Shown here: positions 12,260 to 45,791 of the stretch, piece by piece
Layout of the letters: every line of letters starts with the position of its first letter
Numbering within the stretch: position 1 is the stretch's first letter
Virus record (IMG/VR): IMGVR_UViG_2974779775_000001
Span: 60,108 to 124,107 of that record
Reading direction: 5' to 3' (one strand)
Source of the DNA: Samistivirus egole
Taxonomy: Duplodnaviria > Heunggongvirae > Uroviricota > Caudoviricetes
Length of the DNA: 64,000 nucleotides
The notes under the pieces: model-generated
What the model was told of the DNA's origin: nothing
Databases searched by the model: none
What the model saw: the letters and a program-made list of their open reading frames with translations, nothing else
Translations under genes and position numbers: made by a program

Positions 12260-12865
12260 ATGACTGACGTAGATATTGTTCTTATCGTAGACCGCTCTGG
12301 TAGCATGTCTAGGATTAAGGACGAGGCAGAAGGTGCCCTCAACAGGTTCCTTGATGAGCAGCAGAATGTTGAGGGTGATGTTTTTGTCACCTACGTGCAG
12401 TTTGATGATGTATACGAGACCAAGTTTGAGAAGGTTGGTCTTGCCAATGCGGTTGGTACAGTAAGTATTCAGCCTCGTGGTATGACCGCCCTTCTTGACG
12501 CAATCGGTAAGACCGTAGTAAACTATGTACCACAGACCAAGAAGACAATCTATGTCATCATGACTGATGGCCTGGAGAACGCTTCTCAGGAGTGGACAGT
12601 AGAAACGGTCAACCAGCTCGTTACGGAATCAAAGCAGCACGGTGATGAATTCGTATACCTCGGTGCCAATCAGGACGCCATCGCAGTAGGCTCAAAGCTG
12701 GGAATCCCTGTGGCTTCCAGCCTAACGTTCGCTGCGGACAAGGCAGGACTTGACGCGGTATCAAGGAGTATGACAAGCTATGTAACAGCGACTCGCTCTG
12801 GACTCGCCTACGAGTTCACTGATGAGGACCGTAAGAACGCTACAGGCTTGACAGACAGCGAGTGA
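12260..12865 (+). CDS. vWA-domain protein
   Basis: MIDAS motif DRSGSMS at the N-terminus. Confidence 0.7.
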   Translation: MTDVDIVLIVDRSGSMSRIKDEAEGALNRFLDEQQNVEGDVFVTYVQFDDVYETKFEKVGLANAVGTVSIQPRGMTALLDAIGKTVVNYVPQTKKTIYVIMTDGLENASQEWTVETVNQLVTESKQHGDEFVYLGANQDAIAVGSKLGIPVASSLTFAADKAGLDAVSRSMTSYVTATRSGLAYEFTDEDRKNATGLTDSE

Positions 12866-14378: not shown

Positions 14379-14451
14379 GGTTCCATAGGATAATGACTAA
14401 TCCGCCCTTCCAGGGGAAGGGTAATACCGGTTAAATTCCGGACTAGGAACC
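14379..14451 (+). ncRNA. tRNA-like element / probable pseudo-tRNA
   Basis: Good acceptor (GGTTCCA/GGAACC), a D-arm and an anticodon-like stem. The T-loop is non-canonical (TTAAATT), the anticodon loop lacks U33, and the geometry is off by 2 nt. Confidence 0.3.
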
Positions 14452-14622
14452 ACCAACTTTTGGGTCGATTGAGACACGGTTATCTTACACAATGGATACT
14501 AGGTTCGATTCCTAGGGGTGCTGTAAAAGGTGCTCTGTAAAGTCATCTCAGATGTGTGTGGTAGGATGACATTAGGTACTACACTCTCTCCGTTCTCGCC
14601 ACTTACCTAAAGGATTTACATT

Positions 14623-15144
14623 ATGACGGTACTCCTAAGAACAATTCATGGTTCGCATCTGTACGGTCTCGCTCACGCAGGTTCGGATAAAGACATCTAC
14701 GAAGTGGTTGCTACAAAGCGAACCAAGCGGAAGCGCAATATTAAGCAAACCATCGTGAATGGAATTGACAAGACGGTCGTTGACCTCTCGACATTCATGC
14801 ACATGGTTGACGAATGCGTACCTCAAGCACTTGAAGCGCTATGGACGCCGGTACCAGATGTGGATGAAATCCACCAGTTCCGGACACAATATCGAGTGAA
14901 TCGCGCCAAGATGAAGGAAGTATACATTCGTACCGCTCTGAACTTCGCCAAGCATGAAGACGTAAAACGAAAGCGACATGCTATTCGTCTCCTTCTAAAC
15001 CTTGGTGAGGCCCTGGAATACGGTAAGTTCAATCCACGGCTGTCCACTATGGACAAGTTCATTCTCCGCTCATCACTCGGAGAGTCTGGAGCATATGAGG
15101 ATGTCTTTCTGGGCGTTCTCGATGAAGTGCAAAAGTGGGTCTAA
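14623..15144 (+). CDS. nucleotidyltransferase-fold (Pol beta-like NTase) protein
   Basis: Minimal NTase motif HGSHLYGLAHAGSDKDIYEVV (GS-x-D-x-D). Confidence 0.45.
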   Translation: MTVLLRTIHGSHLYGLAHAGSDKDIYEVVATKRTKRKRNIKQTIVNGIDKTVVDLSTFMHMVDECVPQALEALWTPVPDVDEIHQFRTQYRVNRAKMKEVYIRTALNFAKHEDVKRKRHAIRLLLNLGEALEYGKFNPRLSTMDKFILRSSLGESGAYEDVFLGVLDEVQKWV

Positions 15145-22045: not shown

Positions 22046-22396
22046 ATGCCATTTTCCAATGAAGAGGAGCGAAAGGCGTACGCTAAGGCTCACTACGAAA
22101 AGAACAAACATGTCTACAAAGAACGTAATAATCGTTCACGGCAAAAGAGAGAAGACTTCGTCTTCGACCTTAAGAAAAACAATCCGTGTGCTGATTGTGG
22201 AGAGTTCTATCATCCATGTCAGATGCAGTATGACCACATAGCTGATGACAAAGAAGCTACTGTGAGTTGGCTAGTTCGCAATGGAACAATCAAGAAGATT
22301 GAAACTGAGATTGCCAAGTGTGAACTTGTTTGTGCCAACTGTCACGCATTGAGAACGTGGACCAGACATGAAAAGAATTGCGGGTCGAAAGAGTAA
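22046..22396 (+). CDS. HNH endonuclease
   Basis: CADCG...YDHI...N...CANCH. Confidence 0.75.
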   Translation: MPFSNEEERKAYAKAHYEKNKHVYKERNNRSRQKREDFVFDLKKNNPCADCGEFYHPCQMQYDHIADDKEATVSWLVRNGTIKKIETEIAKCELVCANCHALRTWTRHEKNCGSKE

Positions 22397-22451
22397 GTCG
22401 GTTATCTTCCTTTGAATAAGAAACAGGTAGGTTCGAATCCTACGTAGCCCA
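22382..22451 (+). ncRNA. tRNA-like element (uncertain)
   Basis: T-arm GTAGG-TTCGAAT-CCTAC and an anticodon-like loop CTTTGAA (TTG). The acceptor and D-arm are poor. Confidence 0.3.
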
Positions 22452-22494
22452 AGGCACGGGCGACTCCGACTCTCACCTATATATCCGCACTAGT

Positions 22495-23262: not shown

Positions 23263-24915
23263 ATGTCAAACGCACTTAACACTGCTGCCAAGGGTCTGAA
23301 CAAGACTCCTCAGTCTCAGAAGGCTAAGGCAGGTCAGGTAAAGAACAACGCTGGTGGATTCGTCTTCCAGGTTTCTGACCAGGCTCGCCTAGAGCGATTC
23401 CTGATTCTGGGTGTAGACGGTGGCACTTATTACGTCAAGGAGAGTGCACACGCTCGTTCCAACGTACAGTTCCTCAACGAGATGATTGAGCGAGACGAAG
23501 CCTCTGTACTGAACACCATTGTGGACGTGTCTGTCAATGGTCGTGCATACAAGCAGTCTCCTGCCCTGTTCGCTCTAGCCTCTGTCATTGCCAATGGTAA
23601 GAACAAGCAGGCGGTCAAGGCGGTATTCAATCGTGTCGTTCGTACAGGCACTCACCTGTATGAGCTTCTGAACTACCTTACTTCAATGAACGTTGGGTGG
23701 GGTCGTTCAAAGCGAGAGATTGTTGCTTCTTGGTTCGACCGAGATGCTGACAAGCTGGCTTATCAGGCGGTCAAGTACCGTTCTCGTAAGTTCGGTGAGC
23801 AGACTTGGACACTCCGAGACGTAATGCGTCTTTCCCACCCACGAGATGTGAACACGTCTGTTGCAGATTTTGTTCTCGGCAAGCCTCACGATGCTACCGA
23901 TGACCTTCGGGTTATCGAGGGCTTCAAGAAGATGCAGAGGGCTCAGTCTGTCGAGGACGTTCACAGCGTTCTCCGTGAGTACGAGATGCTTTCATGGGAG
24001 ACAATCCCAACTCAGTTCCTCAAGGACGTGAGTGTGTGGAAGCGAATCTTCGCTAACGGACAGCTCCGTGGCCAGGCTCTTGTTCGAAACATCACTCGCC
24101 TCGCGCGAATTGGTGCTTTCCAGGACATGCGCTTTGCTGCTGCGTATGCGGGACAGCTCACAAATCAGGAGATGATTGTACAGACTCGTCTGCATCCAAT
24201 CAACTTCCTGAATGCGTCTGTCGTGTACAACGAAGGCCAGATGAAGACCGTAAGGGACCGCTGGGGCTTCGAGCGCGAGGAGCGTGTAAAGGACTGGACA
24301 ACTGAGAGTGTTATTGCGGATGCCCTCAATGAGGGATTCCACAAGGCATTCAAGGCTGTCGAGCCTGCCGGTAAGCGAACGATGCTGGCTCTGGACGTAT
24401 CAGGCTCCATGAGTGCAAAGGCTAACGGTCTCGACCTTAGCTGTGCTCAGGTTTCTGCTGCAATGTCTATGGCCATCGCTCGTACCGAGCCTGCTCACAT
24501 CATCCGTGGATTCACGTCCAATGGATATGGCTGGTCTGGTCGCAACAGTGACCTTACCGACCTTGGTATCAGCGCTAAGACAGACCTTGCTACGGCAATG
24601 CGTAATGTCCAGCGTCACAACTGGGGTGGTACGGACTGTAGCCTTCCAATGCGTTGGGCTCTGGACCGTGGAATTGAAGTAGACACGTTCGTCATTATCA
24701 CCGATAATGACACGTGGGCTGGTGAAATCCACCCATTCCAGGCGCTCAAGGAGTACCGTAAGAAGACTGGCATTCCAGCTCGTCTGGCAGTTCTGGGAGT
24801 TCAGGCAACTGAATTCACCATCGCTGACCCAAGCGACGCAGGAATGATGGACTTCGTAGGGTTTGACAGCAATGCACCTCGTGTGCTCGCTGACTTCTCC
24901 GCAGGTCGCATCTGA
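23263..24915 (+). CDS. rsr: Ro60 (TROVE domain) ortholog with C-terminal vWA domain
   Basis: TROVE-like N-terminus (GGFVFQVSDQARLERFLILGVDGGTYY) and a C-terminal MIDAS motif (LALDVSGSMS). The length of 550 aa matches the bacterial Rsr architecture. Confidence 0.7.
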   Translation: MSNALNTAAKGLNKTPQSQKAKAGQVKNNAGGFVFQVSDQARLERFLILGVDGGTYYVKESAHARSNVQFLNEMIERDEASVLNTIVDVSVNGRAYKQSPALFALASVIANGKNKQAVKAVFNRVVRTGTHLYELLNYLTSMNVGWGRSKREIVASWFDRDADKLAYQAVKYRSRKFGEQTWTLRDVMRLSHPRDVNTSVADFVLGKPHDATDDLRVIEGFKKMQRAQSVEDVHSVLREYEMLSWETIPTQFLKDVSVWKRIFANGQLRGQALVRNITRLARIGAFQDMRFAAAYAGQLTNQEMIVQTRLHPINFLNASVVYNEGQMKTVRDRWGFEREERVKDWTTESVIADALNEGFHKAFKAVEPAGKRTMLALDVSGSMSAKANGLDLSCAQVSAAMSMAIARTEPAHIIRGFTSNGYGWSGRNSDLTDLGISAKTDLATAMRNVQRHNWGGTDCSLPMRWALDRGIEVDTFVIITDNDTWAGEIHPFQALKEYRKKTGIPARLAVLGVQATEFTIADPSDAGMMDFVGFDSNAPRVLADFSAGRI

Positions 24916-27744: not shown

Positions 27745-27748
27745 CGCT

Positions 27749-27846
27749 GGAGAGTTGAAAGTCTTGAAAAGTTGGTCACTCAGTAGAGATTGTTTTACAT
27801 GCAGGTTTAACCAACCTCCATGCCGGGTTCGAATCCGGACTCTCCG
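27749..27846 (+). ncRNA. 98-nt tRNA-like RNA with non-tRNA interior
   Basis: Perfect 7-bp acceptor GGAGAGT/ACTCTCC and a TTCGAAT T-loop. The interior holds an 8-bp hairpin CATGCAGG/CCTCCATG and a long-range TTGGT/ACCAA pairing. No canonical D or anticodon arm is visible. Confidence 0.4.
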
Positions 27847-27855
27847 TTGACTTAT

Positions 27856-27932
27856 GGGTTTGATTGGTATAAGGTTACTGAAAGCCGACAATGGACCGGT
27901 AACTGTAGAGGGTTCGAATCCCTCCAAATCCA
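27856..27932 (+). ncRNA. atypical 77-nt tRNA-like element
   Basis: Acceptor GGGTTTG/CAAATCC and T-arm GAGGG-TTCGAAT-CCCTC. The 45-nt interior is not foldable into standard arms by eye. Confidence 0.3.
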
Positions 27933-28004
27933 CTTGGTGATAAAGCTCCCCAAGCTGATAGTCCATATCAGCCGGACACTTGGCGGTGACGCCCTTCACC
28001 TTAT

Positions 28005-28292: not shown

Positions 28293-28345
28293 CTTTGATG
28301 GTAAACGCGATGCCATCGAATGCACACAGGGTCGCTCCCAGTGTG

Positions 28346-28470
28346 AGGAACGTAGTTTAATGGTAAAACCGTGAAATGCGCTGTCGAAATATGCGGTGGT
28401 GCCTCATTGGAGGCTCGTCCGTGAGTAGATATCAGAGTAGCAGTTGTCGGTTCGATTCCGACCGTTCCGC
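28346..28470 (+). ncRNA. 125-nt tRNA-like RNA with a ~55-nt non-tRNA insertion
   Basis: Acceptor AGGAACG/CGTTCCG (6 bp), a canonical D-arm GTTT-AATGGTA-AAAC, and T-arm GTCGG-TTCGATT-CCGAC. The interior contains direct repeats CCGTGA and no anticodon arm. Confidence 0.4.
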
Positions 28471-28613
28471 TAGCCTGCGCTAGATGCAGGAATGTAAGTC
28501 GGCAAGGGAGTGTACAATCCCAAACCGCATTTCTCAACGGCCTTGCAAGGGGCGTCAAAGCAACAGGGTGAGAGTGTCTTGGTTGTTCCGACTCATAACT
28601 GGAACCTCCACAA

Positions 28614-28684: not shown

Positions 28685-28699
28685 CTTGGGAGCTGACAT

Positions 28700-28785
28700 G
28701 GAACTGGCTGAGTCATGACCAGCACGCAATGGTGCGATAGCGGCCGATAAACCGTCAATTCTGGGTTCGAATCCCGGCAGTTCCC
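28700..28785 (+). ncRNA. 86-nt tRNA-like RNA with non-tRNA interior
   Basis: Perfect acceptor GGAACTG/CAGTTCC and T-arm CTGGG-TTCGAAT-CCCGG. The interior has a GTCATGAC palindrome and a CGCA-ATGG-TGCG hairpin, with no anticodon arm. Confidence 0.4.
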
Positions 28786-28791
28786 CCTAAT

Positions 28792-29900: not shown

Positions 29901-30452
29901 ATGACTACACCAAAGAAGTACACACCAAGGCCAGGCGACATTGGACTCACCAGAATTGGTGGTCTGACAGGCGTTCTAGTAGGTCTGGGACAATTCATCA
30001 TGCGAGATGCGAGTAGATACACTCACGTCTTTGTTGTTTTGGACAACCAGGAAGTCATAGAGGCTATGCCAGGTGGAGCAATCATCAGTCCACTGGACAA
30101 GTATGCTGGAACTACTAAGTACGGCAGTCCACTGGCAGCTTACCTAGACATCAAGTTGACGCAGGAGCAGCGAGACGCTATCGTAGAAGTAGCCCGGCAG
30201 CTAGAGGGAACGCCATACAGCTTCCTTGACTACGTGGCCCTGGCTATAGAAAGATTCGGTATCCATTGGAAGTGGGTAGAGAATAGAGTAACCTCTTCCA
30301 AGCACATGATATGCTCTCAGCTAGCTGATGAAGCCTACAAGAGAGCTGGCGTCCATCTCTTTGAAGATGGTAGACTGTCCCAGAAGGTAACCCCAGGAGA
30401 TTTGACTTATGTCGGGTTCGACCAGCGGTACGATGAAGTGTCTGGGCTGTAA
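29901..30452 (+). CDS. possible permuted papain-fold (NlpC/P60-like) hydrolase
   Basis: His (THVFVVLD) precedes Cys (HMICSQLADEAY), suggesting a permuted Cys/His hydrolase. The call is weak. Confidence 0.35.
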   Translation: MTTPKKYTPRPGDIGLTRIGGLTGVLVGLGQFIMRDASRYTHVFVVLDNQEVIEAMPGGAIISPLDKYAGTTKYGSPLAAYLDIKLTQEQRDAIVEVARQLEGTPYSFLDYVALAIERFGIHWKWVENRVTSSKHMICSQLADEAYKRAGVHLFEDGRLSQKVTPGDLTYVGFDQRYDEVSGL

Positions 30453-30633
30453 CAAAGACAAGCCCAGGAGTGATTTCGGAACGACCGGTAATGCGAGGGC
30501 CTTGTGTTCACGCTGTAGGTCTGGTAGAGTAGTACACACAAGCAAGGGCAGTGGTCGAAAGTCCAGCGATGGTAGCTGGATTGGTGACATCTTCGAAGGC
30601 ATCTTTGATGCAATCGGAGACATGCTAAAATAA
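30433..30633 (+). CDS. zinc-finger protein, paralogous to the Endo VII N-terminus
   Basis: CLGCNKDKPRSDF resembles CTGCHKDKPLSEF of the Endo VII-like gene at 53465, but it lacks the HNH catalytic part. Confidence 0.35.
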   Translation: MKCLGCNKDKPRSDFGTTGNARALCSRCRSGRVVHTSKGSGRKSSDGSWIGDIFEGIFDAIGDMLK

Positions 30634-30655
30634 GTACAACGCCCGAAAGGGCTAT

Positions 30656-30731
30656 TCCGGTGGGGCTACTATTGGCAGTAGCGACGAGCTGTTAACTCGT
30701 TTCCCTGTAGGTTCGATTCCTGCCTCCGGAG
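30656..30731 (+). tRNA. tRNA-Asn (anticodon GTT)
   Basis: D-arm GCTAC-TATTGGCA-GTAGC, anticodon stem ACGAG/CTCGT with loop CTGTTAA, T-arm GTAGG-TTCGATT-CCTGC. The acceptor has one mismatch. Confidence 0.5.
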
Positions 30732-30853
30732 CTGGAACGCCAAAGCTCGTATACAGGGCACGGATAAAGTCAAAGGGTAGCGTACGTATTCTAGATACTA
30801 TGTGCGTGAGAGTATGATACTAATCCCGGATTAACCGGCAACGTTCCACCAAC

Positions 30854-30881
30854 TTGACACTCCGACTACATCTGCTAGGAT
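30854..30881 (+). promoter_or_regulatory. SigA-type promoter
   Basis: TTGACA-N16-TAGGAT, 7 nt upstream of the ATG at 30888. Confidence 0.45.
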
Positions 30882-30887
30882 GAACAC

Positions 30888-31022
30888 ATGAACGAAGAGA
30901 GCGGCTGGCTGGTAGCTAGCGAGCCTTATTTCAGGCTTATTCACGGCAAGTTCAAGACTGAGGTCGTGATGAGCGACAATCGTCTGTGGGTCTGGTGGAA
31001 AAGTGATTCAGAATCTGAATGG
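30888..31022 (+). CDS. small hypothetical protein
   Basis: 44-aa ORF directly downstream of the promoter. Confidence 0.3.
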
Positions 31023-31067
31023 ACTCTTCGAGAGCCCAGCGAGATTGTAGTTGACGAGGAGCAGTGA

Positions 31068-31286
31068 ATGCCCTACGATGAAGACCTCGGATGCGTCCGA
31101 GAGACAAAGAAATTTCAGGTGACGCTCAAGGAAGCTGCTTGGGACAATGAGGAACACACTGGCCCTCAACCCGGTATTAAGGGTGAATGTTTCGAGCAGA
31201 GGTTCATTGATGGAGACTGGTTTTACTACATCAAGTTTCCTGGATGGCCTGGCTTCCATATTGCATACAAGCACCAAGTGAAGTAA
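31068..31286 (+). CDS. hypothetical protein
   Basis: + strand ORF. Confidence 0.4.
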   Translation: MPYDEDLGCVRETKKFQVTLKEAAWDNEEHTGPQPGIKGECFEQRFIDGDWFYYIKFPGWPGFHIAYKHQVK

Positions 31287-31492
31287 GCTTTACTCACAGC
31301 ATGTAGATTCATTCGCTTGATGGGGTTTTACGTCTTTCCCAGCCCCGGCGGCGGTGATGAAGAAGGGTTTAGCGGCCCTACTTGTACAAGAGGAAGACGT
31401 TGAGTACAATCATGCTAGAGTAAATAAGCGGATGTTGGGACCGCTTCAAGCAAGAGACACCGCTCAAAGGTGGAGTGCTGCATCCCTTCCTA

Positions 31493-31564
31493 TGGCCTAT
31501 AGCTTAACGGCAGAGCGATTGACTGTTAATCAATTAGGTGCTGGTTCGAATCCAGCTAGGTCAG
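31493..31564 (+). tRNA. tRNA-Asn (anticodon GTT), second copy
   Basis: Acceptor TGGCCTA/TAGGTCA, anticodon stem ATTGA/TCAAT with loop CTGTTAA, T-arm GCTGG-TTCGAAT-CCAGC. Confidence 0.6.
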
Positions 31565-31597
31565 CTCCAAAGCACAACCCAACAACAAAGGAAAACA

Positions 31598-32467
31598 ATG
31601 ACATATCTTGTTATTGCAGGTCTCCTCCTGCTCGTTCTGCTCGTCGCAGTCGCTTTCAGCGCCGTTACTAAGCAGAAGGGTGGATACCTCGTTGCTGTTG
31701 GTGTCGGTCTGCTGCTTGCTGTGTTTACTCTCTTCAACTCAGTAACCTCTGTTGGAGCGCGTAACGTCGGCATTCAGACGGCCTTCGGTCGATACCAGGG
31801 AAACCTTGACAATGGCCTCCAGGTCATTGCTCCTTGGTCAGAGCATGAGGACTTCTCTACTCAGGTTCAGTATCTTGACCTTGATGGTGAGAAGTGGGAT
31901 GAAGGTGCAACGGTTACCTTTGATGGTGGCGGTCGTGGTGTGGTTTACGCTACTCCTCGCTGGCGCATCAATGAGGGTATGGCTGGTGAACTGTGGAAGA
32001 AGTACAAGAACTTCGACAACGTTCGTGACCAGCTCGTTAAGTCTTCTGCCAAGGACTCATTCCGTGCAGTTCTGACGGAGTACACTCCTAACGATGCTCG
32101 TACTAAGGTTCGTGAGGTTGCTGCTAAGGTTCAGAGTGACCTGGCTTCTAGTCTCAAGGATGATGGAATCATCATTGATTCCATCAGCATCAAGGACATT
32201 AAGCTGGACGACCGTACCCAGTCTTCACTTGACAAGATTGTTCAGGCCAACAACGACATTGAGCGTTCAAAGTCTGAGCAGGAGCGAGCGAAGATTGACG
32301 CTGAGACTGCCAAGATTCGTGAGAAGACTGGTGCTCTCAAGCCCGAGGCTCTACAGCGTTACTGCCTTGAGGTTGTCAACAACTGGGACGTGAAGAAGAA
32401 CGGCAACCTGCCTGCTGGCTTCAACTGCAATGGGTCTAACGTTCCCTTCACGGTCACCAACAAGTAA
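31598..32467 (+). CDS. SPFH/Band-7 (stomatin/prohibitin-like) membrane protein
   Basis: Two N-terminal transmembrane helices, an SPFH core (VGIQTAFGRYQ...LQVIAPW) and a C-terminal coiled coil. Confidence 0.65.
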   Translation: MTYLVIAGLLLLVLLVAVAFSAVTKQKGGYLVAVGVGLLLAVFTLFNSVTSVGARNVGIQTAFGRYQGNLDNGLQVIAPWSEHEDFSTQVQYLDLDGEKWDEGATVTFDGGGRGVVYATPRWRINEGMAGELWKKYKNFDNVRDQLVKSSAKDSFRAVLTEYTPNDARTKVREVAAKVQSDLASSLKDDGIIIDSISIKDIKLDDRTQSSLDKIVQANNDIERSKSEQERAKIDAETAKIREKTGALKPEALQRYCLEVVNNWDVKKNGNLPAGFNCNGSNVPFTVTNK

Positions 32468-38495: not shown

Positions 38496-38761
38496 GGGGA
38501 TGCCTTGGTTTCGACTGGGGTGGATGACTTTAGTTTGCAGCCTGACATTGAGGAGATGTCATTAAAAAGCCTCAACACTATAAATGCCAACTCTAAGTTC
38601 GCATTCGCTCTTGCTGCCTGACGGTAGCTGAGCGGGGCTAGTGGGCGGCCTGGCAACAGAATAGCCCACCACAAACTTTCTTGTAACACCCCTTGACACA
38701 TGGCTGTGTATAGACTACTGTTTGAAGCATCAGGACGCGGGTTCGACTCCCGCCATCTCCA
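38496..38761 (+). ncRNA. ssrA: tmRNA (SsrA), tag peptide ANSKFAFALAA
   Basis: 5' end GGGGATGccttGGTTTCGAC matches the conserved tmRNA 5' region. The resume codon GCC falls at positions 91-93 of the RNA, followed by the in-frame tag ANSKFAFALAA and TGA at 38586..38621. The 3' end carries T-arm GCGGG-TTCGACT-CCCGC and an acceptor strand CATCTCC-A that pairs with the 5' GGGGATG. Confidence 0.7.
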
Positions 38762-38833
38762 CGTGGATTACGAAACACTAATGAACAAGTGGATGAAAGT
38801 AATCAGAGATAAGAAAGGTTCTGTTACAGAATC

Positions 38834-42089: not shown

Positions 42090-42126
42090 TTGACAACCAG
42101 CTTAGCTTCATGTTAGGCTGGTTGTC
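42090..42126 (+). promoter_or_regulatory. promoter -35 element inside a 10-bp inverted repeat
   Basis: TTGACA within GACAACCAGC...GCTGGTTGTC. Confidence 0.35.
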
Positions 42127-42193
42127 GCATGCCGGGGAAGTTCTTTGGTAAGAACAGTCTCTCTATAGTGTTCATTTGACCGTGCACAGTCTC

Positions 42194-42222
42194 TTGACAC
42201 CTCCTAGTAGCGCTGCTAGGAT
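42194..42222 (+). promoter_or_regulatory. SigA-type promoter driving a noncoding region
   Basis: TTGACA-N17-TAGGAT. Confidence 0.45.
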
Positions 42223-42237
42223 GACAGAGTAGAAAGG

Positions 42238-42264
42238 TTGGAGGTTCGATTCCTCCCTCTGGCA
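42238..42264 (+). ncRNA. isolated T-arm-like hairpin
   Basis: GGAGG-TTCGATT-CCTCC plus an acceptor-like CTCTGGC, with no full tRNA. Confidence 0.3.
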
Positions 42265-42274
42265 CTTAAGACTT

Positions 42275-42403
42275 GGCCCCAAGAGGCAGCCGATGGTCAC
42301 CGGGATGCATACCGCCCATTGGACCTTATCTAGGTACCACGTCTATGCAACCGACGGGTTGAGCCCATAGACAATGGGGTAGGTTCAAATCCTACTGGGG
42401 TCC
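42275..42403 (+). ncRNA. 129-nt tRNA-like RNA with a ~100-nt non-tRNA interior
   Basis: Acceptor GGCCCCA/TGGGGTC pairs completely, and T-arm GTAGG-TTCAAAT-CCTAC sits next to the 3' acceptor strand. It lies downstream of the promoter at 42194. Confidence 0.4.
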
Positions 42404-42500
42404 ACTATGTTGGAAACTATTCATTCGAAGAGTGGAAGGAGCGTAATGATTTACGACCCTGGTTAGTGTAACTACACTAACTTTGAAGGAGTGAATTATT

Positions 42501-43250: not shown

Positions 43251-44351
43251 ATGAAGTTCACCAAGATTTTCTCTCAGGACTTGCTTGACCAGATGGTCAA
43301 CGAGGGCTTTGTTCGGGTGCAGACTCATCCGGTTCTCCCTCTGCGAATCCTGAACTACTCTGAGAAGGCGCAGTTCGCTGGCAAGTGGAACGCATGTACG
43401 CTTGCTTGTCGTGGCCTTGTCGTTGACGAGTTTGACAATGTCATTGCTCGTCCGTTCGAGAAGTTCTTCAACATGGGGGACTCTCACGCTGCTGACATCG
43501 ACTGGAACGCTCCGGTTGAGGTAACGGACAAGAAGGACGGCTCTATGGGCATCCTTTACTCCGTAATGCCTTACAACGACGCGATTCCGCCTTACGGATT
43601 CCAGTACGGAATTGCTACGCGAGGCTCTTTCCAGTCTGACCAGGCAATTCACGCTACAAAGCTATGGCTGGAGCGCTACAAGAACACCGCTGTCCCTCAC
43701 GACTGGACGTTCATTTTCGAGATTGTCTACCCTGACAACCGAATCGTCCTGGACTACGGAGACATGGATGACCTTATCCTTCTGGGTGCGGTCAACAAGG
43801 AGCACGGCTACGTGTATGGTCCTCGTGAGGCTGCGGCTTTGCTGGATTGGCAGGGGCCGGTAACCGAGGTGTTCGATTACAAGAACATTCACGAGGCTGT
43901 TGGTGCAGACTACCGTCCTAACGCTGAGGGTCTTGTAATTCGCTCTGGTTCTAAGATGGTCAAGCTCAAGCAGGCTGATTACGTTGAGCTTCACCGACTG
44001 ATTTCAATGCTTTCCGAGCGCTCTGTATGGAGTCAGCTCACTGAGGGCAAGACGATTCTGGAGATTTGTGAGGCTCTGCCTGACGAGTTCCACCAGTTCG
44101 TCAAGGATGTCGGTGGCAAGCTGCTCAACGACTACGAGGAGATTGAGATTAAGGTGCGTGGAATCTTCCACAACCTTCTTTCTTCAATGGACGAGGGCTT
44201 CACACGACGTGACTTCGCAATGAAGGCCAACGGTGTGGACCTATACCGTAGCCACATGTTCAACCTGCTTGACGGCAAGAGCATCGATGAGCTAATCTGG
44301 AAGCAGCTCAAGCCCGCTGCAAAGACGGAGGATGGCTACCCTGTCGGGTAG
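43251..44351 (+). CDS. ATP-dependent RNA ligase (Rnl1-like)
   Basis: Nucleotidyltransferase motif I TDKKDGSMGILY (KxDG) in a 366-aa protein, similar in size to T4 Rnl1. RBS AAGGAGG. Confidence 0.6.
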   Translation: MKFTKIFSQDLLDQMVNEGFVRVQTHPVLPLRILNYSEKAQFAGKWNACTLACRGLVVDEFDNVIARPFEKFFNMGDSHAADIDWNAPVEVTDKKDGSMGILYSVMPYNDAIPPYGFQYGIATRGSFQSDQAIHATKLWLERYKNTAVPHDWTFIFEIVYPDNRIVLDYGDMDDLILLGAVNKEHGYVYGPREAAALLDWQGPVTEVFDYKNIHEAVGADYRPNAEGLVIRSGSKMVKLKQADYVELHRLISMLSERSVWSQLTEGKTILEICEALPDEFHQFVKDVGGKLLNDYEEIEIKVRGIFHNLLSSMDEGFTRRDFAMKANGVDLYRSHMFNLLDGKSIDELIWKQLKPAAKTEDGYPVG

Positions 44352-44885: not shown

Positions 44886-45791
44886 ATGGCAACGCTTCTC
44901 ATTCTCCGGGGTGTCCCTGGATGTGGTAAGAGCACCTTCGCTCACCAGTGGCTCAAGGAGGGCGAGCGACGTGCCCGTGTAAACCGTGATGACATCCGCA
45001 TGCAGTTCTTCGGTAAGGAGACTGGTGTAGATGAGAACATGGTTACACAGATTGAGCACATGCAGGTTGACAGTCTGCTTAAGGCTGGATACTCTGTGGT
45101 GGTCGATGACACGAACATCCGTCACGCTTACATCAAGGCTTTCGTCAAGATTGCTGGTAAGCACGGTGTGCCTGTTGCAGTAAAGCAGTTTGATGTAGAC
45201 CTCAAGGTCGCCATTGGGCGCAATGCTGGTCGGGCGGCACAGGGTGGTCGTGACGTTCCTACTCCTGTCATTGAGAAGATGCACAAGTCTCTCAAGTCCA
45301 GTGGACAGTTCACGCGCAAGCTGATTGAGGAAAGCTACTGTAGCTCTCCTGTTGGCAAGCCTTACGTTCGGCCAGTGGGTAAGCGGAAGATTTACCTCTT
45401 TGACATTGATGGCACTCTTGCCAGCATGTCTGACAGGTCTCCGTTTGACTGGTCTCGCGTGGGAGAGGATGACCCTCGTAGGCAGGTCGTACTGACTGCT
45501 CAGGCACTTGCTGAGGCAGGTTACGACATTGTAGTTATGAGTGGTCGTGACTCTAGCTGCCGTGAAGAAACAATTGCTTGGCTGGAGTTCTACGATGTTC
45601 CTTTCTGTGACCTCTTCATGAGGGCAGAGGGCGACATGCGTAAGGACAACATCGTTAAGCAGGAATTGTTTGACCAGCACATCCGTGACTTCTACGATGT
45701 TGTGGCCGTCTTTGACGACCGGCAGCAGGTGGTTGACATGTGGCGTGACATGGGCGTAGACTGCTTCCAGGTTGCGCCTGGAGATTTCTGA
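44886..45791 (+). CDS. pnk: polynucleotide kinase-phosphatase (Pnkp-like)
   Basis: N-terminal P-loop kinase GVPGCGKST and C-terminal HAD phosphatase DIDGTLA, the T4 Pnkp architecture, in a 301-aa protein. Confidence 0.8.
   Translation: MATLLILRGVPGCGKSTFAHQWLKEGERRARVNRDDIRMQFFGKETGVDENMVTQIEHMQVDSLLKAGYSVVVDDTNIRHAYIKAFVKIAGKHGVPVAVKQFDVDLKVAIGRNAGRAAQGGRDVPTPVIEKMHKSLKSSGQFTRKLIEESYCSSPVGKPYVRPVGKRKIYLFDIDGTLASMSDRSPFDWSRVGEDDPRRQVVLTAQALAEAGYDIVVMSGRDSSCREETIAWLEFYDVPFCDLFMRAEGDMRKDNIVKQELFDQHIRDFYDVVAVFDDRQQVVDMWRDMGVDCFQVAPGDF

Follow-up and report, generated by a model that had tools for sequence, protein, structure and literature searches.

The U2 locus

The DNA analyzed here, a stretch of 64,000 nt referred to as the window, belongs to Streptomyces phage EGole (NC_055791; Stanwilliamsviridae, Samistivirus); the 3 kb tested are 100% identical to that record. 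Window positions are obtained by subtracting 60107 from positions of the EGole record. The subject is an element at 42275-42403 (+), named U2 here; its neighbor at 42131-42264 (+) is named U1. The window is spanned by the phage transfer RNA (tRNA) island, in which ARAGORN called 42 tRNAs and one transfer-messenger RNA (tmRNA), every one on the + strand, and small open reading frames (ORFs) are interspersed with the tRNAs throughout. U2 lies between the end of gp193 (42079) and the start of gp194 (42501), in a gap that is unannotated in the deposited EGole record. The first-pass annotation, which was made from the letters alone, had described this gap as non-coding and about 400 bp long; it measures 421 bp. 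The parts of U2 are as follows.

42275-42403 (+): U2, whole tRNA-like RNA gene of 129 nt, based on orthologues, structure, and a covariance model (152 bits)
42275-42281 (+): 5′ strand of the acceptor stem, GGCCCCA, pairing with 42396-42402 (seven of seven pairs, invariant in 11 sequences)
42283-42327 (+): long arm 1 (P2, P3, and P3b), with double-sided changes in two pairs of P2 and three pairs of P3
42283-42286 with 42324-42327 (+): P2, part of long arm 1
42290-42296 with 42316-42322 (+): P3, part of long arm 1, 100% paired
42301-42303 with 42312-42314 (+): P3b, part of long arm 1
42304-42311 (+): 8-nt loop GAUGCAUA with a 6-nt palindrome at its center, replaced by UAGCGCUG in Karimac- and StarPlatinum-type phages
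42328-42336 (+): single-stranded, D-loop-like linker AUCUAGGUA, in which GG is invariant
42337-42377 (+): long arm 2, composed of P4a, P4b (7 bp), P4c (5 bp, GACG loop), and an AGCC bulge, with double-sided changes in two pairs of P4b and one pair of P4c
42379-42395 (+): T-arm GUAGG-UUCAAAU-CCUAC, in which two of five pairs covary (UA/AU/CG; AU/GC)
42396-42403 (+): 3′ strand of the acceptor stem, UGGGGUC, and discriminator C (42403); CCA is not encoded

The acceptor stem GGCCCCA/TGGGGTC consists of six Watson-Crick pairs and one G.U pair. This stem and the T-arm GTAGG-TTCAAAT-CCTAC are present at the coordinates given in the first-pass annotation, and 97 nt are enclosed between them. The hairpin core of long arm 2 (UGCAA-CGACGG-UUGA) is almost invariant, and the T-stem occurs in three versions among the orthologues (GUAGG/CCUAC, GCAGG/CCUGC, and GAGGG/CCCUC). 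The linker at 42328-42336 may form a pseudoknot with 42310-42313. The candidate comprises four pairs (U2 positions 36-39/59-62), one of which, 37-61, is A-U in seven sequences, G-C in two, and G.U in two.

Structure and conservation of U2

Orthologues were gathered via the downstream gene and from GenBank phages, and 11 distinct sequences were aligned. Eight helices are found in U2: the acceptor stem (1-7/122-128), P2 (9-12/50-53), P3 (16-22/42-48), P3b (27-29/38-40), P4a-P4c (63-103), and the T-arm (105-121). When the 40 pairs were examined over the 11 distinct orthologues, 98.9% of the cells were base-paired, and 10 of the 40 pairs were altered on both sides. In a control in which the 3′ partner was shifted by 1-3 columns, pairing fell to 25-51%. 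RNAalifold alone arrived at the same fold. Compared with shuffled versions, the fold of U2 had a z score of -2.1 on the + strand and -0.7 on the - strand. A scan of the window for T-arms (5-bp stem with a TTCRANY-type loop) turned up 49 sites, all of them on the + strand, and 38 of these fall in called tRNAs, the tmRNA, or Rfam hits. U2 is therefore not a chance arrangement: the T-arm sites are one-sided, the fold beats its shuffles, and the orthologues show compensatory changes. Moreover, the covariation and conservation indicate a functional RNA rather than a decaying one. Function as opposed to local tRNA decay had already been proposed in the first-pass annotation, on the ground of dispersal along the genome; the proposal holds by virtue of covariation and conservation, and the dispersal argument is dropped. 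On the sequence evidence, U2 is a structured, non-decoding tRNA-like RNA gene.

The 8-nt loop of long arm 1 is G-AUGCAU-A in the EGole-type phages and U-AGCGCU-G in the Karimac- and StarPlatinum-type phages, and the palindrome is retained though four of its six central bases differ between the two versions. A third version was sought, and IchabodCrane was found to be of the Karimac type with one G-C to G.U change. U1 and U2 together place three palindromic-loop hairpins inside 125 nt, the U1 loops being UAGCGCUG and GUGCAC. These loops would fit loop-loop dimerization or the binding of a dimeric protein, which we treat as a lead and not as established.

Alternatively, the conserved features might act as DNA and not as RNA, serving as recombination sites or as palindromes of a promoter or operator. 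The loops do contain 6-nt DNA palindromes, a U1 hairpin (CTAGTAGCGCTGCTAG) is located exactly in a promoter spacer, and a chimeric gene in phage Persimmon (see below) arose by recombination at a T-loop. However, G.U pairs are tolerated on the + strand only (the invariant G2.U71 as well as 17-47, 18-46, and 19-45, among others), the strand bias of the T-arm units is complete (49 to 0), and U2 contains no promoter motif. GTGCAC, AGCGCT, and ATGCAT all occur at or near the expected genome frequency. Action at the DNA level is thus extremely improbable in our view. A reading of the loop hexamers as DNA palindromes or restriction sites was rejected because the three hexamers are not off expectation.

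Comparison with tRNA, tmRNA, and coding sequences

U2 has the 7-bp acceptor stem, the discriminator, the 5-bp T-stem, and the 7-nt UUCRANY T-loop (UUCRAAU) of canonical tRNAs (RF00005), and, like the true tRNAs of this phage, it has no encoded CCA. Unlike canonical tRNAs, which possess a D-arm and an anticodon arm, it is 129 nt long and is missed by every tRNA finder. U2 was not called by ARAGORN, either by default or with introns of 0-200 nt allowed, and the Rfam scan at gathering score gave nothing on it; in a permissive Rfam scan of the gap (E ≤ 10), the best match on U2 was tRNA-Sec with 18.6 bits (cutoff, 47). A D-arm with a GG loop after positions 8-9 is absent, and a covarying arm of 45 nt occupies positions 9-53 instead. 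An anticodon arm (5-bp stem, 7-nt loop, and U33) is also absent, and the second arm is capped by the 4-nt GACG loop. Because it has neither a D-arm nor a 7-nt anticodon loop, U2 cannot decode.

The perfectly tRNA-like ends suggest another origin, namely a tRNA that carries an intron or insertion or that is decaying into a pseudogene. A spliced tRNA could in principle be sealed by the RNA ligase and kinase encoded nearby, and the annotators of phage Mildred21 filed its orthologue as tRNA-OTHER. For a systematic search, every contiguous segment of 30-69 nt was removed from U2, and ARAGORN was run on each of the 1479 resulting variants. Only 6 of the 1479 were called, all as weak tRNA-Cys (tRNA-Cys(GCA) once approximately positions 12-58 were deleted), and the putative intron would fall in the D-arm region. 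All six need a stem 66-69/79-82, which is contradicted by the covariation of 68-97 and 69-96: the change of U68 to C is compensated at position 97, not at position 80. The intron-interrupted tRNA was rejected on this basis. No match to a group I intron or any other ribozyme was obtained in the permissive Rfam scan of the gap, and decay is contradicted by the compensatory changes in 10 pairs and by the conservation of U2 across 58 phage records. An interrupted or decaying tRNA is consequently a very improbable description of U2.

tmRNA, which is also encoded by this phage, resembles U2 in that tRNA-like acceptor and T-arm ends surround a large non-tRNA insert. In contrast to U2, it has a tag reading frame, a series of pseudoknots, and the G3.U70 pair, and U2 is half its size or less. 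Assignment of U2 as a tmRNA was rejected, since the alanine identity pair G3.U70 is absent (U2 has G2.U71 and C3-G70) and no Rfam tmRNA match was found. A protein-coding function was likewise rejected because no ORF of more than 31 amino acids overlaps U2.

According to the first-pass annotation, U2 is the fourth member of a family that includes three loci at 27.7-28.8 kb and shares their architecture. A covariance model built from the U2 alignment was run on the window. It gave 152 bits on U2, and the next best hit was an ordinary tRNA-Thr (20.9 bits). The units at 27.7-28.8 kb scored no better than this tRNA: 20.1 bits for 27856-27933, 18.3 bits for 28689-28786, and 7.5 bits for 28446 (T-arm only), and 27748-27847 was not listed at E ≤ 10. 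U1 scored 10.5 bits. Membership in one family is thus not supported. As to the shared architecture, the acceptor and T-arm ends are indeed common to these units, and the core is not: the folds of the 27.7-28.8 kb units and U2 differ in size and shape. Judged from sequence, they have common tRNA-like ends around a non-tRNA core and constitute an architecture class, not a homologous family.

Distribution and natural variants

Each of 58 phage records, all from Streptomyces phages, contains one copy of U2, and U2 was also found on one metagenome contig of 118 kb. U1 was found in 44 phage records. Beyond BE-type Streptomyces phage sequences, no U2 was detected in IMG/VR, 185,579 species genomes, or JGI metagenomes, in exact-hairpin scans that diverged relatives would escape; none was detected in bacterial genomes by a genome-collection scan requiring an exact match to the conserved hairpin. 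U2 is unannotated in every record row listed, the one exception found being Mildred21, in which the identical 129-nt span is annotated. The same applies to U1: both units are unannotated in all records inspected except Mildred21, and tRNA finders miss both. A full-text search of the literature found no description of either unit.

The position of U2 is constant, between the gp193 and gp194 homologues. Four states of the locus were observed across phages: U1 with U2, U2 alone, U1 alone, and neither. By the criterion of the first-pass annotation, alignment of this locus to a conventional tRNA in related genomes would have counted against its reading, and this was not seen. The relatives carry the same unit of 128-129 nt in place of a conventional tRNA, and the only exception among those fetched is a chimera in Persimmon (L051, ~650-720), in which the 5′ part of tRNA-Ala(GGC) is fused at the T-loop to the 3′ end of U2. 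The corresponding deletion removes gp193, U1, and most of U2. As read from its sequence, this chimera shows that T-loops appear to act as recombination sites between tRNA-like genes.

U1 and promoters

The following features lie upstream of U2.

42090-42119 (+): promoter-like site TTGACA-N18-TAGGCT, read from sequence, ending 11 nt before U1
42131-42264 (+): U1, oversized tRNA-like unit of 134 nt, matching the Rfam tRNA model (32.8 bits, permissive scan) with a 72-nt insert in the anticodon arm
42194-42222 (+): sigma-70/HrdB-type promoter-like site TTGACA-N17-TAGGAT of an enriched class, inside the insert of U1 and 52 nt upstream of U2

In U1, a canonical D-arm and a T-arm accompany the acceptor stem (GCCGGGG/CTCTGGC), and the anticodon stem is extended and capped by two hairpins with 8-nt loops containing GUGCAC and AGCGCU. 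It is conserved, with 13 pairs showing compensatory change in RNAalifold, and by eye the extended stem keeps 3 bp, an irregular position, and 4 bp over five sequence versions. The hairpin at 42238-42264 had been taken for a lone T-arm in the first-pass annotation. The hairpin exists; since the tRNA-model match covers 42131-42264, it is the 3′ end of U1, composed of the T-arm and the 3′ acceptor strand, and is not alone.

The site at 42194-42222 is an exact member of the class TTGAC-N18-TAGRRT. With one mismatch allowed, the window contains 29 members of this class where 3.8 are expected. All but one of them are on the + strand, and they are frequently located just upstream of tRNA genes. Examples (TTGAC(A)-N17-TAGRRT) start at 12848, 14169, 17312, 21382, 26941, 33305, and 42194. 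In several copies, the -35 hexamer is part of an inverted repeat that closes just 3′ of the -10 hexamer. Similarly, the -35 hexamer of the site at 42090-42119 and the sequence 3′ of its -10 hexamer make up an inverted repeat, and the same layout is found 5′ of U2 in Karimac, Angela, and CeilingFan.

The promoter at 42194-42222 is kept in U1 orthologues without U2 (L006, L015, Anedea, and LilMartin), and it is therefore a property of U1. In the Jay2Jay type (L002 and L009), the -35 hexamer of the U1-internal promoter is degenerate (TTGCGG). The U1-internal promoter should be able to serve U2 and gp194 as well. U1 is missing from Karimac, CeilingFan, and Angela, where U2 starts 15 nt downstream of a TTGACA-N18-TAGACT of its own, and in Karimac and CeilingFan a separate TTGACA-N17-TAGGAT is located between U2 and the next gene. 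The first-pass annotation had credited U2 with its own promoter. The TTGACA-N17-TAGGAT site is present and belongs to the enriched class, and in EGole it lies within U1 and is not U2's own. The broader idea of a promoter-driven U2 is supported at the sequence level by the enriched class and by the dedicated promoter in the relatives lacking U1.

In EGole, no promoter motif was found between U2 and gp194, and no terminator is predicted in this interval. The lack of a terminator after U2 suggests that U2 is probably excised from longer transcripts. These features also raise the question of whether U2 is a mere processing signal (a "t-element"), whose ends recruit RNase P and RNase Z and set the 5′ end of the gp194-Rnl1 messenger RNA, the excised RNA being functionless. 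Since EGole has no promoter motif in front of gp194, this gene is probably read through U2, and both the invariable flanking of U2 by gp193 and gp194 homologues and the alternation of tRNAs with small ORFs throughout the island agree with such a signal. However, RNase P and RNase Z need no more than an acceptor/T-arm minihelix. Conservation nevertheless extends over the 97 nt of the interior, where four distinct helices have undergone compensatory change and the loops are almost invariant. In Karimac and CeilingFan, furthermore, the promoters on both U2 and the downstream gene uncouple the two. A functionless excised RNA therefore seems unlikely, although we give this explanation some weight.

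The leader of gp194 at 42434-42491 (+) is itself conserved and has a strong Shine-Dalgarno sequence (GGAAGGAG). It contains a six-codon mini-ORF (MIYDPG followed by a stop codon) at 42446-42466 and a hairpin, GTTAGTGT-AACT-ACACTAAC, at 42462-42481, which lies over the stop codon of the mini-ORF and 5′ of the gp194 ribosome-binding site. The leader is almost unchanged in Persimmon, Anedea, LilMartin, and Angela, and it may exert translational control of the gp194-Rnl1 block.

Comparison with Y RNAs

RNA repair and quality-control genes of the tRNA island (RlaP, Ro60, Rnl1, and PNKP) were confirmed by Pfam. They are listed here with the tmRNA gene and a candidate Y RNA.

14623-15144: RlaP-family nucleotidyltransferase (Pfam)
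22379-22489 (+): candidate YrlA-type Y RNA, ~770 nt upstream of the Ro60 gene
23263-24915: Ro60, gp128 (TROVE + vWA), on the same strand as U2 (Pfam: TROVE, 2.7e-31; vWA_Ro60, 7.1e-59)
38496-38762: tmRNA (ARAGORN and Rfam)
43251-44351: T4-type RNA ligase 1, Rnl1 (Pfam)
44886-45791: PNKP kinase/phosphatase (Pfam)

The Rnl1 and PNKP genes are located ~850 nt downstream of U2. A band-7-like membrane protein and a peptidase are also annotated in the record, at 29901-32467.

Y RNAs are tRNA mimics and partners of Ro60 (PMC4201824, PMC12135203). They are 80-130 nt long with tRNA-like domains, often number at least two per genome, and in some cases have escaped bioinformatic discovery (PMC4201824, PMC12135203). 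RNase P cleaves YrlA of M. smegmatis, in which a 7-bp stem resembles an acceptor, and CCA is added to this RNA (PMC4201824). In a published survey, nearly all best Y-RNA matches were less than 4 kb from Ro60 (PMC4201824). Like U2, the Y RNAs (YrlA, Yrn1, and Yrl1/Yrl2 of phiLo) have a tRNA-like module with a T-arm and a length of 80-130 nt, and they are found in genomes encoding Ro60 and RNA-repair genes. YrlA differs from U2 in being circularly permuted, in the order T-arm, closed acceptor stem-loop, and D-arm, and it ends in a Ro-binding stem with GNCGAAN0-1G. In U2, by contrast, the acceptor ends are open, and there is no CGAA motif and no D-arm.

These comparisons bear on the idea that U2 is a non-canonical Y RNA bound by Ro60 (gp128), gating Ro60 or tethering it to a nuclease or repair enzymes in the manner of YrlA and Yrn1. 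A genuine Ro60 (TROVE) orthologue is present in the phage. U2 lies on its strand and ~850 nt upstream of the Rnl1 and PNKP genes, and it has the size and the tRNA-like domains of Y RNAs, several of which can occur in one genome with some undetected earlier (PMC4201824, PMC12135203). Nevertheless, U2 is on the same strand but 17.4 kb downstream of gp128 (end, 24915), far beyond ~4 kb. The CGAA motif, and with it GNCGAAN0-1G, occurs nowhere in EGole U2, and in the relatives CGAA is found only inside the T-loop. The topology is opposite as well: the permuted tRNA-like module is absent, and the two ends of the RNA form an open acceptor stem, not a Ro-binding stem. U2 as a standard Y RNA was rejected because these defining features failed (no CGAA, open acceptor, and 17.4 kb from Ro60), and the non-canonical form is, in our estimate, rather unlikely.

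A better candidate lies near Ro60. In the element at 22379-22489, the terminal stem comprises 7 bp, an internal loop presents GGGUCGAAAG (the GNCGAANG motif), and a T-arm at 22427-22443 is accompanied by a closed stem-loop resembling an acceptor. Part of the element lies over the 3′ end of the HNH gene gp125, and its conservation extends to 50 phage records. It is unannotated and unmatched in Rfam, and an Rfam scan of 21.9-27.1 kb gave no match to a Y-RNA family. Based on its sequence features, 22379-22489 is a far better Y-RNA candidate than U2, and it takes further weight from the assignment of U2 to this class.

Comparison with T4 RNA C

Large tRNA-rich phages carry a few stable RNAs with tRNA-like ends that are unable to decode, and RNAs C and D of T4 are the classic examples. 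T4 rnaC (species 1 RNA, 139 nt) was fetched and folded. From the terminal stem, the fold proceeds through a long arm, a linker, and a further long hairpin to a T-arm (CCGGG-UUCGAAU-CCCGG) that abuts the 3′ strand, and it contains no anticodon loop. Judged from the predicted folds, rnaC is the closest architectural match to U2. Both have a terminal 5′/3′ stem, two long arms, and a 3′-proximal canonical T-arm, and T4 rnaC and rnaD, like U2, are located inside a phage tRNA cluster on the tRNA strand and are 120-140 nt long. The T4 genes are annotated in the record only as small, stable RNAs. In the T4 region that was fetched, the only "RNA ligase" annotation is on gene 57B; T4 also encodes Rnl1 and Pnkp. 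To our knowledge, the function of T4 rnaC and rnaD is still unassigned.

Homology between the two was not detected, the U2 model giving 13.1 bits on rnaC, which is within the range of the T4 tRNAs (9-17 bits). The terminal stem of rnaC is irregular, whereas that of U2 is a clean 7-bp acceptor stem. Unlike rnaC, U2 has its own promoter in some phages, and T4 and EGole differ in host phylum and phage family. U2 belongs with the non-decoding tRNA-like stable RNAs of tRNA-rich phages, a known kind.

Proposed biogenesis and role of U2

We propose the following course for U2 based on the structure, the promoter motifs, and the gene context. U2 would be transcribed on the + strand from host-type TTGACA/TAGRRT promoters, which in EGole would be the site at 42194-42222 and possibly that at 42090-42119, and in the phages without U1 the dedicated promoter 15 nt upstream. 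RNase P cleavage at 42274/42275 and removal of the 3′ trailer beyond C42403 would follow, and the 3′ end would receive CCA, which would leave a stable RNA whose ends are tRNA-like. Processing of the tRNA type is expected because a 7-bp acceptor stem stacked on a 5-bp T-arm with a canonical T-loop is the minimal substrate of the tRNA-maturation enzymes, and YrlA of M. smegmatis serves as a precedent (PMC4201824). As mature U2 cannot decode, the conserved arms should be its functional part, and the working surfaces may include the self-complementary hexamer in the 8-nt loop, the AGCC-bulged and almost invariant hairpin CAACC-GACG-GGUUG, and the D-loop-like GG linker. The most likely role of U2 would be that of a tRNA mimic that binds, titrates (as a decoy), or scaffolds a protein of tRNA or RNA metabolism. 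This role would be set in the tRNA-maintenance and RNA-repair program of the phage, which includes 42 tRNAs, tmRNA, Ro60, Rnl1, PNKP, and RlaP. U2 would in this respect be analogous to Y RNAs and T4 rnaC. The identity and biogenesis of U2 as a stand-alone, non-decoding tRNA-like RNA gene are in our judgment reasonably probable, and its specific role is far less certain.

Several points weigh against this interpretation. The orthologues are close relatives, with a mean column identity of 88%, and several of the compensatory changes therefore probably go back to one inherited event each. U2 is missing from Persimmon and from the U1-only phages Jay2Jay, Bmoc, Anedea, and LilMartin, and it is therefore accessory and not essential. 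The argument from the palindromic loops stands on only two loop versions of U2, and the module of a short stem with a palindromic 8-nt loop is not enriched genome-wide (16 observed against 14.4 +/- 4.0 expected). The role is assigned by analogy only.

A more specific form of the proposal is that U1 and U2 are tRNA-scaffolded RNAs that self-associate via their hexamer loops (AUGCAU or AGCGCU in U2; GUGCAC and AGCGCU in U1) into kissing dimers or chains bearing several tRNA-like ends and act as decoys or platforms. Their targets could be host acceptor-end factors, such as tRNA-targeting defense toxins, or the Ro60 and repair enzymes of the phage. We consider such self-association quite improbable. 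If true, it would represent a new class of phage counter-defense RNA and could also explain RNAs of the T4 rnaC type.

What non-decoding tRNA mimics do for a phage is an old question, which the U2 system makes tractable by knock-outs and pull-downs. U2 is a cleaner case for study, with a perfect acceptor stem and T-arm, two arms backed by covariation, and, in some phages, a promoter of its own. Dozens of sequenced, culturable Streptomyces phages provide natural variants with and without U2 as well as a natural deletion, and the EGole genome also encodes Ro60, Rnl1, PNKP, RlaP, and tmRNA.

Other tRNA-like units in the window

Further unannotated non-canonical units on the + strand, with an acceptor stem and/or T-arm and differing cores, are located at 27748-27847, 28345-28471, 28689-28786, and 56403-56461, and additional T-arms (+) are present at 14499 and 17490. 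With introns allowed, ARAGORN reads 28345-28471 as a tRNA-Ser(GCU) carrying an intron of 35 nt. In the 77-nt unit at 27856-27932 (+), the acceptor stem GGGUUUG/CAAAUCC provides the alanine identity set, G3.U70 together with discriminator A. The unit lacks a normal anticodon arm, and its score with the Rfam tmRNA model was 36.5 bits (cutoff, 47). As far as its sequence tells, it may be a mini tmRNA-like RNA or an alanine-accepting mimic. The unit at 14379-14455 (+) is annotated as tRNA-Gly in the EGole record and was not called by ARAGORN. It forms a cloverleaf with 8 bp in the stem of the "anticodon" arm and 3 nt in its loop, and, unlike in the other tRNAs of the window, CCA directly follows the 3′ acceptor strand.

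Finally, 6-nt palindromes as a whole are strongly avoided in the window: 18 of the 64 are wholly absent from the 64 kb, each with an expectation of ~14-17 from base composition, and all four GATC-containing palindromes are among these 18. This avoidance is consistent with selection against restriction sites.

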